From the IMG/VR virus record IMGVR_UViG_2698536435_000009: a DNA stretch of 7,446 nucleotides; one strand, given 5' to 3'. The DNA is from a virus (Duplodnaviria > Heunggongvirae > Uroviricota > Caudoviricetes). A program made the position numbers and the translations under genes. Below are positions 385 to 7,446 of this stretch, piece by piece (the first letter of the stretch is position 1; each line of letters opens with the position of its first letter). A model generated the notes under the pieces. That model did no database searches. It saw nothing but the letters and a program-made list of their open reading frames with translations, and was not told where the DNA came from.

Positions 385-444
385 CCTCACACAACCGCAA
401 AATCGGTTGTCGGGATTGGCGTCTCGGATAACATCACAACGCAT

Positions 445-466
445 AGCCGCGTTTGCGGTTTTTTTT
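445..466 (+). terminator. Terminator-like hairpin with U8 tract in the leader, about 55-75 nt downstream of the candidate promoter (possible attenuator or end of a short leader RNA)
   Basis: Short GC stem CCGC/GCGG (447-450 with 455-458, extendable by A-U and G-U pairs) with GTTT loop, followed directly by eight T residues (459-466). The stem is short, so this is weak. Confidence 0.3.
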
Positions 467-565
467 GCGTTAAGCATTGCCACATTCGCATTATGGTGGG
501 GCGTGCAGGGGCGGAGAAATCCGCGCCGGGTTTTGTGATGACCGGTTACGCCAACCCTGTACGTC

Positions 566-599
566 TCACCACCTCCCTGATTGGCGTCAGAGGTGGTGA
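566..599 (+). promoter_or_regulatory. Perfect 9-bp stem hairpin (TCACCACCT, 16-nt loop, AGGTGGTGA) immediately upstream of the Rha-family gene ribosome-binding site
   Basis: Perfect inverted repeat read directly from the sequence. The 3' arm is Shine-Dalgarno-like, and the hairpin ends 14 nt before the GGAG at 614-617. Confidence 0.3.
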
Positions 600-1595: not shown

Positions 1596-1865
1596 TTACT
1601 CCCTGACAGGATTTGCAGGCCACTCAATATCAGGTGCAGTTGATGTATCAACACGATTCAACAATACCCGATATTTATTCCATGCCTCCAGCAACGATCT
1701 TTCTTCCTCCGTTGCGATTTCCAGATCTACAGCATCCTGCAGTGGCGCAATATACTCACTAAATTCCTGGATGTAGAACTGTGTGGTGACGGTCTTCCAG
1801 CCATTCGGCTCCTGCTGTATCGAAGCATACTAGGCTATTTCAATATCGCTATGCTGCGGCAGCAT
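1596..1865 (-). pseudogene. Tail fibre assembly (Tfa)-like short protein, copy A, inactivated by an amber codon at codon 12
   Basis: About 90% DNA identity to the intact copy at 3654..3923. Translation gives [11 protein letters not shown] then TAG (plus-strand CTAGG at 1830-1834, where copy B has CCAGG). The rest stays in frame and keeps the conserved Tfa C-terminal motif ([25 protein letters not shown]). Confidence 0.6.
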
Positions 1866-1921: not shown

Positions 1922-2373
1922 ATGGTGAAATCAATGAAAACAAACACAGATGATGGGGCTAAAATTTACACACCACTTACCCTAAAGCTTTATGACTGGT
2001 GGGTTTTGGGAGTATCAAATCGGCTTGCATGGGGATGTCCTACAAAGGAACACCTTCTTCCACACTTTCTGGAACATTTAGGTAACAACCATCTGGATAT
2101 TGGTGTTGGAACTGGGTTTTACCTTACTCACGTACCTGAGAGTAGTCTGATATCTTTAATGGATTTGAACGAAGCTAGCCTGAACGCGGCATCTACAAGG
2201 GCTGGGGAATCAAAAATTAAACATAAAATTAGCCATGATGTTTTTGAACCTTATCCCGCGGCGTTACATGGTCAATTTGATTCCATTTCCATGTTTTACC
2301 TTCTTCACTGCCTGCCTGGAAATATATCTACAAAAAGCTGTGTAATACGCAATGCGGCGCAGGCCTTAACTGA
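1922..2373 (+). pseudogene. Class I SAM-dependent methyltransferase, copy A, truncated after codon 150 by the IS110-family element
   Basis: DNA is identical to 3980..4431 of the intact copy and the homology stops abruptly at 2373. The ORF track frame (1922..2461) reads on into the IS, adding an unrelated 29-aa tail. Motif I LDIGVGTGFY is present. Confidence 0.7.
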
Positions 2374-3653
2374 ATCAGGGAACTGGTTATTCTCATTTTT
2401 TATTTGTGACATTGTGGTTGTTGTGCGACAGACATTGCTATTCGGCCCATATCCCAGATAAAACCCGCCAGCTCACGTGCAACAGCAACAATTGTAATAT
2501 TGACATTCTTTCCTTTGGCCTGAAGTTTTCGATACCTCTTACAAAGCCTGAGTTGAGCATCCCATGCTCTGTCAATGACGGGGCGGGGTAAATTTTCCTG
2601 CCTTTTTTGTATTGCCGGACTGATGCGTGCCGGATGACGGTAACTCCACGCTGCCTCGACCAATAGCTTTCTGGCATAGCTGTTTCCGGCTTTGGTAATG
2701 CTGCCCTGATGTCTGCTTCCACCCGATGAATATTCTGATGGCGTGATACCAAACCATGACATCAGTTGTCGTGGATGTTCAAAACGGGTCAGATCACCCA
2801 GTTCAGAAATTAATCCAACCGCAGTAATAAACTGAATCCCTCGCATGGCTTGCAGCGCCTCTACTACCGGATACAGCCTCCATTCGGTAACGGCCTCCTT
2901 CAGGGCGGATTCCAGCCGTTCACATTGTGCCTGCCGATCTTCTATTGTACGACGGTGTTCGTCAAAAGCTAATTGTCGCCAGGGACTTTCGAATGAGTAT
3001 TTGCTGAGCCAGCGTCGGTGTGCAGGGCCCCAATCTGCTCGCCCGACATAATGGACCCCATGAACCAGAAGAAACGATTTCAGACGTTGCCTTGCATGCC
3101 GTAAATCATCGCGGGCAGATGCCCATGCCCGGGCCAAATCCCGGAATGCCTCATCTTCAATGCCGGGTACGTAGACAGCAGAAAGATCTCCTGCACGCAG
3201 TGAACGCACAAGTCTGATGGCATCACGGCGATCGGTTTTAACCCGCTCCCCCGGTTTTTTCGGGATAAGTGAGGGGGCGCAGACCATGCAGTCAAAACCG
3301 GATTTCACCAGCCGACGATAAAGTCCATAACCACAGGGCCCCGCTTCATAAACGATACTGACCTGCGATGACTTTGACCTGAGACGTTTACAAAGATTCT
3401 GAATATCAGTAGGTGATGTGCCAATTTTACCCATCAGTTCAACAGGTTCTGAATTGATAGCATAAGCGACAGTAATCGATTCTTTGTGAACATCTAACCC
3501 GACGTACAATGTGTTATTGTTGTTCATGCTGGCCTCCGTGGTGGAAATACCGGGGTGTAGCAACAGCTCACCCATGCGGCTCTGACAACGATGTTAACCC
3601 GCGTTAAATATCCCACGTTGGCCAGCATCTGTCTCACGGAAAGTCATACTGCC
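2374..3653 (-). mobile_element. IS110-family insertion sequence (about 1.28 kb, boundaries approximate) with no obvious terminal inverted repeats
   Basis: Bounded on the left by the break in methyltransferase homology at 2373/2374 and on the right by the tfa-like copy B (stop at 3654, homology to copy A resuming at 3676). It contains a single DEDD-type transposase ORF. The right boundary is uncertain within 3528-3675. Confidence 0.65.
2400..3527 (-). CDS. IS110-family (DEDD) transposase, about 375 aa
   Basis: ORF track 2400..3575. The preferred start is ATG 3525-3527 (MNNNNTLYVGLDVHK) with GGAGG 7 nt upstream. It has the N-terminal YVGLDVHK motif typical of IS110-family transposases and the C-terminal ITAVGLISELGDLTRFEHPRQLMSWFGITPSEYSSGGSRHQGSITKAGNSYARKLL region. 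Confidence 0.85.
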   Translation of the reverse strand: MNNNNTLYVGLDVHKESITVAYAINSEPVELMGKIGTSPTDIQNLCKRLRSKSSQVSIVYEAGPCGYGLYRRLVKSGFDCMVCAPSLIPKKPGERVKTDRRDAIRLVRSLRAGDLSAVYVPGIEDEAFRDLARAWASARDDLRHARQRLKSFLLVHGVHYVGRADWGPAHRRWLSKYSFESPWRQLAFDEHRRTIEDRQAQCERLESALKEAVTEWRLYPVVEALQAMRGIQFITAVGLISELGDLTRFEHPRQLMSWFGITPSEYSSGGSRHQGSITKAGNSYARKLLVEAAWSYRHPARISPAIQKRQENLPRPVIDRAWDAQLRLCKRYRKLQAKGKNVNITIVAVARELAGFIWDMGRIAMSVAQQPQCHK

Positions 3654-3923
3654 TTACATTGTGTCTGGTTCTTCCGGCCACTCAATATCAGGTGCAGTTG
3701 ATGTATCAACACGGTTCAGCAACACCCGATACTTCTTCCAGGCTTCCAGCAACGAGTTTTCTTCCTCCGTTGCGATCTCCAGATCTACAGCATCCTGAAG
3801 TGGCGCAATATGCTCACTGAATTCCTGGATGTAGAACTGTGTGGTGACGGTCTTCCAGCCATTCGGCTCCTGCTGTATCGAAGCATACCAGGCTATTTCA
3901 ATATCGCTATGCTGCGGCAGCAT
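3654..3923 (-). CDS. Short tail fibre assembly (Tfa)-like protein, 89 aa, intact copy B
   Basis: ORF track 3654..3923. The C-terminal 50 aa ([50 protein letters not shown]) align with the C-terminus of the full-length Tfa at 6583..7110 ([45 protein letters not shown]). The N-terminal 40 aa are unrelated. Confidence 0.55.
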
Positions 3924-3950
3924 TTAACCCCTTGTAATTCATCGCCATAA

Positions 3951-3979
3951 TTGATTTAATTCACAAATAAAACTATAAC
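3951..3979 (+). promoter_or_regulatory. Possible promoter for the methyltransferase gene (TTGATT, 17-nt spacer, TATAAC)
   Basis: Hexamers at 3951-3956 and 3974-3979 in the 56-bp divergent intergenic region. The -10 element abuts ATG 3980, so the real start may be the second ATG at 3992 on a very short leader. Weak, pattern only. Confidence 0.2.
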
Positions 3980-4648
3980 ATGGTGAAATCAATGAAAACA
4001 AACACAGATGATGGGGCTAAAATTTACACACCACTTACCCTAAAGCTTTATGACTGGTGGGTTTTGGGAGTATCAAATCGGCTTGCATGGGGATGTCCTA
4101 CAAAGGAACACCTTCTTCCACACTTTCTGGAACATTTAGGTAACAACCATCTGGATATTGGTGTTGGAACTGGGTTTTACCTTACTCACGTACCTGAGAG
4201 TAGTCTGATATCTTTAATGGATTTGAACGAAGCTAGCCTGAACGCGGCATCTACAAGGGCTGGGGAATCAAAAATTAAACATAAAATTAGCCATGATGTT
4301 TTTGAACCTTATCCCGCGGCGTTACATGGTCAATTTGATTCCATTTCCATGTTTTACCTTCTTCACTGCCTGCCTGGAAATATATCTACAAAAAGCTGTG
4401 TAATACGCAATGCGGCGCAGGCCTTAACTGACGATGGAACTCTATACGGAGCCACAATTCTTGGCGATGGAGTTGTGCACAATAGCTTCGGTCAAAAACT
4501 GATGCGCATTTACAATCAGAAAGGCATCTTTTCAAACACAAAAGATTCCGAAGAAGGCTTAACACATATACTCTCAGAGCATTTCGAGAATGTTAAAACC
4601 AGGGTTCAAGGTACTGTAGTAATGTTTTCCGCTTCAGGGAAAAAATAG
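3980..4648 (+). CDS. Class I SAM-dependent methyltransferase (Rossmann fold), 222 aa, intact copy B
   Basis: ORF track 3980..4648. Motif I LDIGVGTGFYL (hh-D-h-G-x-G-x-G), with an acidic residue after beta-2 (LMDLNEA). No DNA-methyltransferase catalytic motifs (DPPY/NPPY or PC) were seen. An alternative start is ATG 3992. Stop is TAG. Confidence 0.8.
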   Translation: MVKSMKTNTDDGAKIYTPLTLKLYDWWVLGVSNRLAWGCPTKEHLLPHFLEHLGNNHLDIGVGTGFYLTHVPESSLISLMDLNEASLNAASTRAGESKIKHKISHDVFEPYPAALHGQFDSISMFYLLHCLPGNISTKSCVIRNAAQALTDDGTLYGATILGDGVVHNSFGQKLMRIYNQKGIFSNTKDSEEGLTHILSEHFENVKTRVQGTVVMFSASGKK

Positions 4649-4655
4649 CATCCAA

Positions 4656-4688
4656 CCGCAGCACGTTCTTGCTTAAGACGTGCTGCGG
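4656..4688. repeat. Perfect 11-bp inverted repeat (CCGCAGCACGT, 11-nt loop, ACGTGCTGCGG) between the convergent methyltransferase and tfa fragment C
   Basis: Read directly from the sequence. It is GC-rich but has no adjacent U-tract on either strand, so it is not a canonical intrinsic terminator. Confidence 0.5.
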
Positions 4689-4702
4689 CATAATCCCAAT
4701 GA

Positions 4703-4797
4703 TTACTCCCTGACAGGGTTCGTAGGCCACTCAATATCAGGTGCAGTTGATGTATCAACACGGTTCAGCAACACCCGATACTTTTTCTAGGCTTCCA
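4703..4797 (-). pseudogene. Tfa-like C-terminal fragment, copy C, with an amber codon at the conserved Trp position
   Basis: Homologous to 3654-3745 of copy B. It reads EA then TAG then [27 protein letters not shown]. The TAG is plus-strand CTAGG at 4787-4791 where copy B has CCAGG. Homology to tfa ends at 4797. Confidence 0.55.
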
Positions 4798-4798
4798 C

Positions 4799-5029
4799 CA
4801 CCAGCACGACAAGATGCCGCATACAGTGACCCAGTCAGTCCAGTTTTCAGACAACCAGTGCGTCACCTTTTTGAAGGCGCTTTAAAGCACGTTTTAATCC
4901 AGGTCGGCCTGTCCTTGTTCCGCTTAATTTATCTTCAAATATTTGTTCATATCCTGCACAAACAAGAGCGTTTCGTTGCAGGTCTGTATTCTGGTCATTT
5001 GTTGATACCCTTACATAGCCAATCAGCAC
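4799..5029 (-). pseudogene. pin: Pin/Gin/Cin-family serine DNA invertase, N-terminal remnant (about 77 codons) with in-frame stops, fused to tfa fragment C
   Basis: From GTG 5027-5029 (GGAG 8 nt upstream) it reads MLIGYVRVSTNDQNTDLQRNALVCAGYEQIFEDKLSGTRTGRPGLKRALKRLQKGDALVV, matching the Gin/Pin N-terminus including the catalytic Ser in VRVSTNDQ. It then reads TGA-KLD-TGA-LGHCMRHLVVLVVEA against Gin WKLDRLGRSMKHLISLVGEL (Gin sequence from memory). The resolvase C-terminus and the helix-turn-helix are absent. Confidence 0.8.
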
Positions 5030-5083
5030 GCTGAATCTCCCGTCCAAAAGCACAAATCATGCCATGCAGGCCAGAAACCGCCA

Positions 5084-5109
5084 TTATCTAAAACCTCGGT
5101 TTACGAGAA
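5084..5109. other. gix/pix-type 26-bp recombination crossover site for a Gin/Pin-family invertase
   Basis: TTATCTAAAACCTCGGTTTACGAGAA, with the imperfect dyad AAACC-TC-GGTTT, closely resembles the Mu gix and e14 pix sites as I remember them. It lies between the invertase start and the tail-fibre variable segment, and the tail-fibre reading frame opens inside it at 5092. Confidence 0.7.
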
Positions 5110-5868
5110 CTCGGCACAAGCGGGGAGAAAATACCGTTACTCAGTACAGCGAATACCTGGACTAATCGACAAACATTCAGCGGTGGCCTTTCTGGTGAAC
5201 TATCCGGCAATGCTTCTACAGCTGCAAAATTAAAAACTGCCAGGAAAATAAGCAATGTGGCTTTTGATGGTTCCTCCGATATCACATTAAAAGCAAGTCA
5301 TGTTGGTGCGTTTGCCTTAGGGAAAACAGGAAGCACCGTTGCGAATGATAAAGCAGTTGGATGGAACTGGAGTAGCGGAGCCTATAACGCAACTATTAGT
5401 GGTGCATCAACGTTAATTATTCATTTTTATATGGGAGAAGGAAGTTGTCCTGCAGCTCAGTTTCGGATTAATTATAAAAATGGCGGTATTTTTTATCGTT
5501 CAGCCCGTGATGGTTATGGTTTTGAAGCCGACTGGTCCGAATTTTACACCACCAGAAAACCTTCAGCAGGAGATGTTGGTGCACTGCCGTTATCTGGTGG
5601 TCAACTGAATGGTGCACTGGGTATCGGAACATCCAGTGCTCTTGGCGGTAATTCGATTGTATTGGGTGATAATGACACGGGCTTTAAACAAAAAGGCGAT
5701 GGTAATCTGGATGTTTATGCTAATAACGTCCATGTTATGCGCTTTGTCTCCGGAAGCATTCAAAGTAATAAAACCATAAATATTACGGGACGTGTTAATC
5801 CCTCGGATTACGGTAACTTTGATTCCCGCTATGTGAGAGATGTCAGACTTGGCACACGAGTTGTTTAG
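5092..5868 (+). CDS. Tail fibre protein variable C-terminal segment (Sv, silent orientation), with no own start, ending at an in-frame TAG; the frame continues 5872..6018
   Basis: The open frame begins within the crossover site (NLGLRELGTSGEKIPLLSTANTW...) and covers ORF track 5257..5868 (GTG-initiated). It is Gly/Ser-rich and fibre-like. After TAG 5866-5868 the same frame encodes 48 more aa ending [17 protein letters not shown], homologous to the C-terminus of the minus-strand copy ([17 protein letters not shown]). Confidence 0.6.
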   Translation, partial: NLGLRELGTSGEKIPLLSTANTWTNRQTFSGGLSGELSGNASTAAKLKTARKISNVAFDGSSDITLKASHVGAFALGKTGSTVANDKAVGWNWSSGAYNATISGASTLIIHFYMGEGSCPAAQFRINYKNGGIFYRSARDGYGFEADWSEFYTTRKPSAGDVGALPLSGGQLNGALGIGTSSALGGNSIVLGDNDTGFKQKGDGNLDVYANNVHVMRFVSGSIQSNKTINITGRVNPSDYGNFDSRYVRDVRLGTRVV

Positions 5869-6020
5869 ACCATGAAGAAAGGCGTGATGTATGAAAAATC
5901 AGGCCATGTAATCACGGGGCTTGGTATTATCGGTGAAGTCGATGGTGATGATCCGGCAGTATTCAGACCAATACAAAAGTTAATTAACGGAACATGGTAT
6001 AACGTATCGCAGGTATAATC

Positions 6021-6554
6021 ATGCAGCATTTAAAAAACATTGTCGCAGGTAATCCAAAAACCGTTGAACAATACCAGCTAACAAAGAATTTTGATGTTAT
6101 CTGGTTATGGTCCGAAGATGGAAAAAATTGGCATGAGGAATTAAAAAACTTTCAGGAGGATACAATAAAACTGGCTTACACAGTTGAGGGAATAATTATT
6201 GCTATAGACAAGGATGTATCAGCAATTAATCCAGAAGGTTTAAGTGTCGTTGAGTTGCCTGATATTACAGCAAATCGCCGGGCTGATATTTCGGGCAACT
6301 GGATGTTCAAAGATGGTGCGGTGATAAAGCGAACTTATACCGAGGAAGAGCAAAGGCAACAAGCGGAAAATGAAAAGCAGAGCCTGCTGCAGCTCGTCAG
6401 GGATAAAACCCAGCTGTGGGACTCTCAGCTACAGCTGGGCATCATTTCCGATGAGAATAAACAAAAATTAACCGAGTGGATGCTCTATGCGCAGAAGGTT
6501 GAATCCACAGACACCTCCAGCCTGCCAGTAACGTTTCCCGAACAACCAGAATGA
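6021..6554 (+). CDS. Tail fibre assembly protein (Tfa), 177 aa
   Basis: ORF track 6021..6554. ATG follows 2 nt after the TAA of the upstream tail-fibre frame. It is paralogous to the minus-strand Tfa ([22 protein letters not shown] versus [21 protein letters not shown]) and ends with the conserved PEQPE-type terminus. Confidence 0.85.
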
Positions 6555-6557
6555 GAG

Positions 6558-6587
6558 AAGGCCCGCTATCGGGCCTTAATTTTTATT
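6558..6587. terminator. Bidirectional intrinsic terminator between the convergent tfa genes
   Basis: Perfect 8-bp stem AAGGCCCG, CTAT loop, CGGGCCTT (6558-6577), followed by AATTTTTATT on the plus strand, with a T-rich stretch on the other side for the minus strand. Confidence 0.55.
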
Positions 6588-7110
6588 CAGGCTTTTGTGG
6601 CCATTCAGGATTTGCCGTATCCACACGGCTGACCAGAACACTGTAGCGTTCCCATGCTTCCAGTCGTGTGCGTTCCTCGTCTGTTGCCATATTCAGCCTG
6701 ACAGCTCGTTCCAGCGGCTGGATGACTGATTCAGCTTCGGAAAGCAATGCGGCCTTTTGTGATTCGGCCTGTTGTTGCAGTTCCTGTTCTGTATATTCCC
6801 TCTTTACTACTTTACCATCCAGAAACATCCATTTTCCGTTATTGTCTGCGTGACGATTTGCCGTAATATCAGGAACTTCAACTATGCTTAGCCCTTCAGG
6901 ATTAATAGTTGAAACGTCTTTACTGACAGCAACGATGATGTTGTTCTCATCGTAAGCAATTTTTATGGTGTCTGGCTGAAAATTCTTTTGTTCCTCATAC
7001 CAGTTTTTGCCATCTTCGCAAAAGAGCCATACCACGCCCGCTTTTTTAGTTAGCTGGTATTGTTCCGGTGTTTTCGGATTCCCGGCCTTAATATTTTTCA
7101 GGTGCATCAT
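6583..7110 (-). CDS. Tail fibre assembly protein (Tfa), inverted paralogue, about 175 aa
   Basis: ORF track 6583..7146. The preferred start is ATG 7108-7110 ([11 protein letters not shown]) with GGGGAG 8 nt upstream, sitting 1 nt after the TAA of the tail-fibre gene. The C-terminus is [13 protein letters not shown]. Confidence 0.85.
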
Positions 7111-7111
7111 C

Positions 7112-7446
7112 TTAAACACTCCCCACGTTGTACCATATTCCCCCAATCAATTTCTGAATTGGCCTTCTGGCAACAGTGTCGACAATATCATCCGCATTGC
7201 TGTTAATTGCGGCTGTTAAAACATAACCTGACGCATCGCCAAAGCCGTAGTCGCGCCATACGTTTTTATATTCAATGCTGCCAAGACGAATATCCCGAAC
7301 GACATGATTATGCAGCCATGTGCTTAACCAGTTGTTTTCCCACACTGAACCATAAATATCGCCACTAGACGCAACTTGCGCACCACTTCCCAGCGCAAAT
7401 TGAGGTAGCCTGAGTTTAACGGACACTCCTTCCTGAAATAGAATGG
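7112..7446 (-). CDS. Tail fibre protein variable C-terminal segment (expressed orientation), partial, continuing beyond the right edge of the window
   Basis: ORF track 7112..7426 is only GTG-delimited, and the frame stays open to position 7446. The C-terminus ...[63 protein letters not shown] is homologous to the plus-strand silent copy but is not interrupted. Confidence 0.75.

Follow-up and report, generated by a model that had tools for sequence, protein, structure and literature searches.

An amber codon at a Dcm site in a tail-fibre-assembly remnant of a Shigella sonnei-type prophage: probable deamination of 5-methylcytosine

In a prophage stretch beside trpA, a short remnant of a tail-fibre-assembly (tfa) gene is interrupted by an amber codon at a place where a second, nearly identical remnant 2 kb away encodes tryptophan, and the base responsible is the inner, Dcm-methylated cytosine of CCAGG. 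The question raised by this locus is whether the amber codon is the product of 5-methylcytosine deamination or of some other event, such as an ordinary mutation, a transfer from another cassette, a change in the opposite direction, or a sequencing artefact. Answering it involves the identity and condition of the remnants, the origin of the second copy, the ancestral state of the site, and the behaviour of the site among related genomes.

The prophage end and its tfa remnants

The window (the whole stretch of DNA that we analysed, 7,446 nucleotides) is the degraded end of a lambdoid prophage of the S. sonnei type, located beside trpA. It begins within an IS1 copy (1-51, identical to the IS1 end in S. 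sonnei loci) and continues with the ash and rha genes (355-1184). Next comes copy A, a tfaX-like remnant ORF of 89 codons (1596..1865, reverse strand) with an amber at codon 12, and then the 5′ 151 codons of a ybcY-like class I SAM methyltransferase gene (1922..2373, forward strand), which is severed at the junction with a truncated ISSso6. The ISSso6 copy (IS110 family; 2375..3657, reverse strand) lacks about 245 bp at its low-coordinate end, and is followed by copy B, a remnant ORF of 89 codons that is open (3654..3923, reverse strand), by a full-length gene for a class I SAM-dependent methyltransferase of 222 aa (3980..4648, forward strand), a protein encoded in identical form at the trp locus in S. 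sonnei, and by copy C (4697..4798, reverse strand), a third tfa copy reduced to a 3′ fragment, with an amber at the conserved EAW tryptophan. Farther on lie a truncated Pin-type recombinase gene (4847-5053, reverse strand), in which the resolvase domain is reduced to its N-terminal 68 aa, and an invertible tail-fibre segment (6021-7110) that carries two full-length tfa genes in opposite orientation. This segment has 159-nt arms that are 71% complementary and it adjoins the truncated recombinase gene; its inversion switch is probably frozen. At the other end of the window, Rfam matches above threshold were obtained for isrK, an Hfq-binding RNA (391-465, forward strand), and for the C4 antisense RNA (489-576, forward strand), both of them preceding rha and located within the ash-family ORF or upstream of it.

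The tfa′-methyltransferase-tfa′ cassette is located at the tail-fibre end of lambdoid prophages, and near-identical versions of it are found at four or more prophage sites (at least trpA/ompW, ompT, potB, and the ipaH prophage near btsS/mlrA). Its methyltransferase gene is intact in most strains and frameshifted in K-12, and in Shigella it directly adjoins an ipaH effector gene. The E. coli counterparts closest to the window are those of ST131 and other B2 strains, which are situated between trpA/ompW and tail-fibre genes and contain a single-copy cassette. The DLP12 cluster of K-12 (tfaX - ybcY - tfaD, next to appY and ompT) resembles the window in gene order and in remnant status, and the two sequences are near-identical over the stretch that begins midway in the tfa remnant and includes the methyltransferase gene; it has CCAGG at codon 12, TGA at the EAW tryptophan, and the frameshift in the methyltransferase gene. 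Unlike the K-12 cluster, the cassette in the window lies beside trpA/ompW, retains an intact methyltransferase gene, and is partly duplicated around the truncated ISSso6.

At 1830-1834 (forward strand) the window reads CTAGG, with a T at 1831 in place of the inner, Dcm-methylated C of CCAGG; in the copy A ORF (1596-1865, reverse strand) this produces the amber at codon 12 (bases 1832-1830). The corresponding Dcm site of copy B is intact (CCAGG at 3888-3892, forward strand), and codon 12 there is TGG for tryptophan, in the reading ...IEIAWYAS..., so that bases and translations both agree with an earlier note on this DNA, which had set the CTAGG amber at codon 12 of copy A against CCAGG and tryptophan in copy B. 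From 1813 to 2373, base 1831 is the sole difference between the two copies. Copy C also reads CTAGG, at 4787-4791 (forward strand), giving VEA*KKY at the conserved "EAW" tryptophan of Tfa; the counterpart of this second site is CCAGG in copy B (3737-3741) and CCATG in copy A. On the coding (reverse) strand both amber changes convert TGG to TAG within GCC-TGG, which is the same as a forward-strand C to T change at the inner C of CCAGG. Copy A carries one more derived change of this class, a synonymous G-to-A at 1761, which is a G:C to A:T transition outside any Dcm site.

Copy B had been taken for an intact gene, which it is not: only residues 31-86 match Caudo_TAP (PF02413), at profile positions 75-130 of 131, so that the last 43% of the tail-fibre-assembly domain is the only part represented. 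In an intact Tfa of 175-177 aa, by comparison, all of the roughly 131 domain positions are covered, and the full-length Tfa proteins of the window match profile positions 2-131. The equivalents of these ORFs are annotated in RefSeq as pseudogenes with the N-terminus missing, and most phage Tfa proteins align with them from residue 27-32 onward, which places codon 12 upstream of the Tfa-homologous part. The conservation of Trp-12 among phage Tfa proteins is uninformative, with 20 of 316 phage records covering at least 80% of the ORF. Since the ORF is already a C-terminal remnant, no functional consequence of the amber is expected. The same tfaX region as in copies A and B is also the basis of a candidate small RNA family, IS009 (RF02111), and copy B matches the whole Rfam model (3697-3900, reverse strand; 129.2 bits versus a gathering threshold of 117), with copy A (1639-1842, reverse strand, 110.8 bits) and copy C (4746-4825, reverse strand, a partial match of 46.4 bits) below the threshold. 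The Dcm site falls at about model positions 8-12, within a poorly aligned insertion of low posterior probability, and the change at 1831 is therefore uninformative on RNA structure.

The hybrid origin of copy B

An exact-protein look-up placed the window's methyltransferase at the trpA-side prophage of several genomes, including S. sonnei 75/02 (CP019689), in which the cassette is single-copy. Compared with the trp locus of 75/02 (locus 1), positions 1-2373 of the window have one difference (base 219), and positions 3676-7446 depart from it solely in the 3′ patch of copy B and at bases 3819, 3889, and 4829. The stretch from 2374 to 4431 is a 2058-bp insert relative to the single-copy S. sonnei trp locus, absent in nine genomes, and it contains, in this order, the truncated ISSso6, a hybrid tfa remnant, and a second copy of the 5′ part of the methyltransferase gene.

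The protein of copy B is encoded at another locus in S. sonnei genomes, in the arrangement ipaH - methyltransferase - tfaB - ISSso6 - IS1 - dinI - btsS side; this ipaH-prophage cassette lies about 300 kb from the trp locus, in direct orientation, and window positions 2375-4688 are collinear with it. The 3′ part of copy B and the right junction of ISSso6 are identical to the ipaH-prophage cassette in S. sonnei. The SNPs of copy B are of the ipaH-locus type up to 3819 (the 3′ part, 3658-3819) and change to the trp-locus type no later than 3979, with the crossover somewhere in the interval containing 3889. Copy B, called the intact paralogue in the earlier note, is thus not a sister duplicate of copy A, and is instead a hybrid with the ipaH-prophage cassette, joined through the truncated ISSso6.

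Two simpler histories were considered and rejected: a simple or recent tandem duplication with A and B as sisters, because the 3′ part of B and the IS junction come from the ipaH-prophage cassette, and a simple insertion of ISSso6 with target duplication, because the element is incomplete at one end. The full element is about 1.53 kb long and recurs in E. coli genomes and plasmids; given the approximately 245 bp missing from the copy in the window, the 2374/2375 junction is a deletion endpoint and not a transposition joint. The structure could plausibly have arisen when the two cassettes, lying in direct orientation, underwent unequal homologous exchange and the duplication then collapsed. Exchange between cassettes is also seen elsewhere, in an ipaH-locus sequence (L023) with the locus-1 G at 4602 and in another sequence (L026) with the locus-1 C at 3979. 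No record was returned by an exact-protein look-up of the 179-aa methyltransferase-ISSso6 fusion ORF, no match to the 2374/2375 junction by exact scans of species-representative genomes and JGI metagenomes, and no hit with at least 80% coverage of the whole window or of sub-windows among E. coli complete genomes. As copy B is not the parent of copy A, the proper comparison for the site at 1831 is with orthologues, and these still support a change from C to T.

Ancestral state of the site and its variation in S. sonnei

The ST131 orthologue (L001), which has the same locus and the same A-type 3′ end as copy A, reads CCAGG at the site. So do codon 12 of tfaX in K-12 DLP12, with a different SNP nearby, and the ipaH-prophage cassettes of Shigella (10 of 10). 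A comparison with orthologous loci had been proposed in the earlier note as the check on polarity, and in all of these loci it returned CCAGG, which is taken as the ancestral state. Among E. coli complete genomes, the exact 61-mer with CCAGG occurs in 1917 records and that with CTAGG in 50, and a further 245 records combine CTAGG with an adjacent 1-nt deletion; the T allele is therefore present in at least 295 records and is not rare. Among 816 E. coli genomes with the same locus context, the best match of the window is at most 99.5%, which amounts to three window-specific differences, including 1831. Together these alignments support a C to T direction at 1831, with CCAGG ancestral.

The T allele also occurs outside the trp locus: near-identical cassettes with CTAGG are found at the ompT locus (S88, L002) and at the potB locus (L003, L004, and L007), and the potB locus has both alleles, C and T, on near-identical flanks. 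It could be that the CTAGG of the ompT and potB cassettes and the allele of S. sonnei go back to one shared origin through recombination, so that independent events at this site might number just one. Many of the E. coli potB-locus cassettes (L007, about 1156-1170; 245 records) have CTAGG together with a 1-nt deletion three bases upstream, and RefSeq labels this spot as a fragment of a frameshifted "DinI family protein".

The T of copy C is common to the trp-locus copies of the window, S. sonnei, and ST131, and the nearest relatives of copy C, namely the potB-locus copy C (L003) and K-12 tfaD (L005), have CCAGG. Because ST131 and S. sonnei share this T at the trp locus and the nearest relatives lack it, the event in copy C is separate from the one at 1831 and older. 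The CTAGG at 4787-4791, which the earlier note had put forward as a second case, accordingly holds up as an event in its own right.

Within S. sonnei, the site at the trp locus is T in 7 of 9 genomes (L008-L016, position 5910) and C in the other two (L011 and L013). What had been regarded as a private change of copy A is therefore the common allele of the S. sonnei trp locus, present in seven of nine single-copy loci, and since it is the common allele at the trpA-side remnant, the T is older than the rearrangement by which copy B came to lie 2 kb from copy A. The lineage marker A at 1761 is present in all nine trp-locus sequences. L011 differs from L014 over 12,669 bp solely at the base equivalent to 1831, and two bases, this one included, separate L013 from L009; SNPs and structure assign L011 and L013 to different groups. 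Over 12.7 kb, the nine loci have 8 substitution sites, among which the 1831-equivalent alone is incompatible with the others (homoplasic); it is 1 of 46 methylated positions in the S. sonnei loci, and all other CCWGG sites are invariant. Such a pattern of recurrence might also be produced by gene conversion or an artefact. The C or T at the site is found in all four combinations with the markers at window-B coordinates 3819 and 3999, within 180 bp, and markers located 70 and 90 bp from the site show no co-conversion with the T/C switch.

Possible causes of this switching are recurrent C to T change, a return from T to C by very short conversion or by Vsr repair of a heteroduplex with the ipaH-locus cassette, and cross-mapping during polishing. 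ONT errors at Dcm motifs are unlikely to account for the T/C differences, because no other CCWGG site varies and because 75/02, which has the T, was Illumina-sequenced. If the switch is real, it might be the natural trace of very-short-patch repair by Vsr on a heteroduplex between two prophage cassettes about 300 kb apart (T:G in CTAGG/CCTGG to C:G), or else of exceptionally frequent recurrent deamination of 5-methylcytosine; we put this forward as a speculative reading, and a distinctly unlikely one.

Deamination at the Dcm site and its alternatives

Deamination of 5-methylcytosine at a Dcm site is probably the best explanation of the T at 1831. Dcm would have methylated the inner cytosine of CCAGG at this position, the 5-methylcytosine would have been converted to thymine by spontaneous deamination, and the resulting T:G mismatch would have evaded Vsr very-short-patch repair, with replication fixing the T. 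The change is similar to the lacI-type Dcm hotspots in that it affects the inner C of CCAGG, goes from C to T, has an amber outcome, and is found in a host species that almost always has dcm-vsr. It differs from them in strand and codon: in lacI, CAG (Gln) becomes TAG through a change on the coding strand, whereas here the methylated C is on the non-coding strand and TGG (Trp) becomes TAG. In addition, lacI represents a selected mutant spectrum and the present case a natural pseudogene polymorphism, for which Dcm dependence is inferred and not measured. The lacI amber hotspots were reportedly described by Coulondre et al. in 1978, and the am6 marker of lambda cI is another classical example of a hotspot of deamination at Dcm sites.

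As for the host, 5359 of 5426 E. coli genomes carry dcm-vsr, and the source strain of the window would have been Dcm-positive. A literature search on Dcm methylation in S. sonnei found nothing direct; Nanopore consensus sequences of S. sonnei are more accurate with a Dcm-aware model, and in this benchmarking the species behaves as Dcm-methylated (PMC6591954). CCWGG is a hotspot for G:C to A:T change at the methylated base, and a minor fraction of the E. coli transitions of this class comes from CCWGG sites (PMC13250602). The T:G mismatch in CTWGG/CCWGG is repaired by Vsr (PMC2715241; PMC3527292).

How often chance would produce such a coincidence can be estimated from the reconstructed ancestral ORF of 89 codons, which has 43 one-step routes to a stop codon; 14 of these are G:C to A:T transitions, and 2 of the 14 transitions are on Dcm-methylated positions. 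Given that it was the stop codon that drew attention, the chance expectation for an amber on a methylated position is 5-14%. Tryptophan codons are nonsense-prone anyway, both TGG-to-stop routes being G-to-A transitions. Across 28 cassette copies, 17 of 838 core columns are variable, comprising 2 of 8 methylated positions versus 15 of 830 others (hypergeometric P = 0.010 for all sites and 0.053 for G:C sites only). In 2236 bp compared between the window and ST131, one of nine substitutions falls on one of 10 methylated positions (P = 0.04). The enrichment at methylated positions appears modest in these alignments.

One of the two variable methylated positions is base 4602, where the change runs the opposite way, from CCAAG to CCAGG. 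At 4599..4603 (forward strand) the window has CCAGG, and all E. coli cassettes, as well as the ipaH-locus cassettes except L023, have CCAAG. The change is A-to-G (on the minus strand, T to C in CTTGG), replaces Lys by Arg in the methyltransferase, and gains a Dcm site; the G is specific to the S. sonnei trp locus and one converted copy (L023). A gain of a Dcm site in this direction would be expected from very-short-patch repair. Other changes in the family are not of the Dcm kind. At the EAW tryptophan, tfaX of K-12 (L005, about 2370-2385) has TCAGG, TGG having become TGA through the outer, unmethylated C, and L004 has CCAGA, a further non-Dcm event. The TGA of K-12 tfaX is a useful negative control for the Dcm argument. 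Of the mechanism advanced in the earlier note, the inner-C context, the C to T direction, and the probable mechanism itself are retained, while the attribution of a single event to methylation is a probabilistic one, as the K-12 TGA at the outer C illustrates. We infer that methylation, rather than background G:C to A:T mutation, was the cause of these particular events.

The alternative closest at hand is a G:C to A:T transition of the ordinary kind, unrelated to methylation (arising from a replication error or from the deamination of an unmethylated C), that fell in CCWGG by chance and was noticed through its conversion of Trp to a stop. The proportion of transition routes on methylated positions (2 of 14, a chance of 14%) leaves room for it, as do the outer-C event of K-12 tfaX and the CCAGA of L004, and the change of copy A at 1761 is likewise a G:C to A:T transition outside a Dcm site. 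A background transition nevertheless fits poorly with two separate TGG to TAG changes in the window, both on inner cytosines, with the 6- to 14-fold overrepresentation of methylated positions among the variable columns, and with the position of the only homoplasic site among the S. sonnei loci, and we consider it unlikely. It is also conceivable that the T was imported by a short gene-conversion tract from a CTAGG cassette of the ompT or potB type, with the C to T change at the Dcm site having occurred once, elsewhere and earlier. Near-identical CTAGG cassettes do exist at ompT (S88, L002) and potB (L003, L004, L007), and cassette exchange is visible in L023 (4602 G) and L026 (3979 C); but the T is flanked by the S. 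sonnei markers 1761 A (at 70 bp) and 1941 C (at 110 bp), which are absent in the sampled CTAGG donors, so that the conversion tract would need to be shorter than 180 bp. Import of this kind seems quite improbable to us.

The polarity could also be the reverse, with CTAGG ancestral for the A-type cassette and CCAGG produced by T to C change, through Vsr or by conversion from CCAGG paralogues. In the small S. sonnei tree, a T ancestor with two T-to-C changes (L011 and L013) is at least as parsimonious as a C ancestor, the change at 4602 goes in the same direction, and Dcm sites are maintained by VSP repair (PMC2715241). Against this reading, K-12 DLP12, the ipaH-prophage locus, and the ST131 orthologue all have CCAGG, which is the large majority allele; a T to C reversal may account for L011 and L013; it does not explain how the T arose, and we regard CTAGG as very improbable as the ancestral state. 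Finally, the T might be an artefact: Nanopore sequencing might have yielded a wrong consensus at a Dcm motif, or short reads might have been cross-mapped from one near-identical cassette to the other when the genome was assembled or polished. With older basecallers, Dcm motifs accounted for about 70% of the consensus errors of ONT (PMC6591954), the 70-90 bp of identical sequence on each side of the site in both cassettes permits mis-mapping, and the 2058-bp structure of the window was not found in the other sequences searched. However, the window itself has a C in copy B, whose flanks are identical, and its 13 other CCWGG sites are undamaged; no further CCWGG site varies across the nine S. sonnei loci, and the T is also present in the Illumina-sequenced S. 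sonnei 75/02. It is present, too, in E. coli S88, presumably a Sanger-era genome. An artefact is thus scarcely credible as the source of the T at 1831, although it could explain the two C calls in L011 and L013.

With deamination of 5-methylcytosine as the probable origin of the T at 1831, the mechanism is a textbook one, the best-known sequence-specific mutation hotspot of enterobacteria, and it acted on a gene fragment that was already non-functional; the finding is real but ordinary. Its value lies in being a clean and well-polarised natural example, with two separate Trp-to-amber events in one small gene family and, 2.7 kb from the amber site, a change of the reverse, VSP type that gained a Dcm site. 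The recognition that the "paralogue" is a hybrid of two prophage cassettes is a caution for inferring the direction of mutation from paralogues. As the sole homoplasic site among the sampled S. sonnei loci, the 1831-equivalent base may be of use for the study of Dcm and Vsr, or else serve as a flag for an assembly-polishing artefact. Should the T/C switch prove true, Dcm and Vsr would be visibly shaping polymorphism in a clonal pathogen, whether by very-short-patch repair of a heteroduplex or by recurrent deamination.
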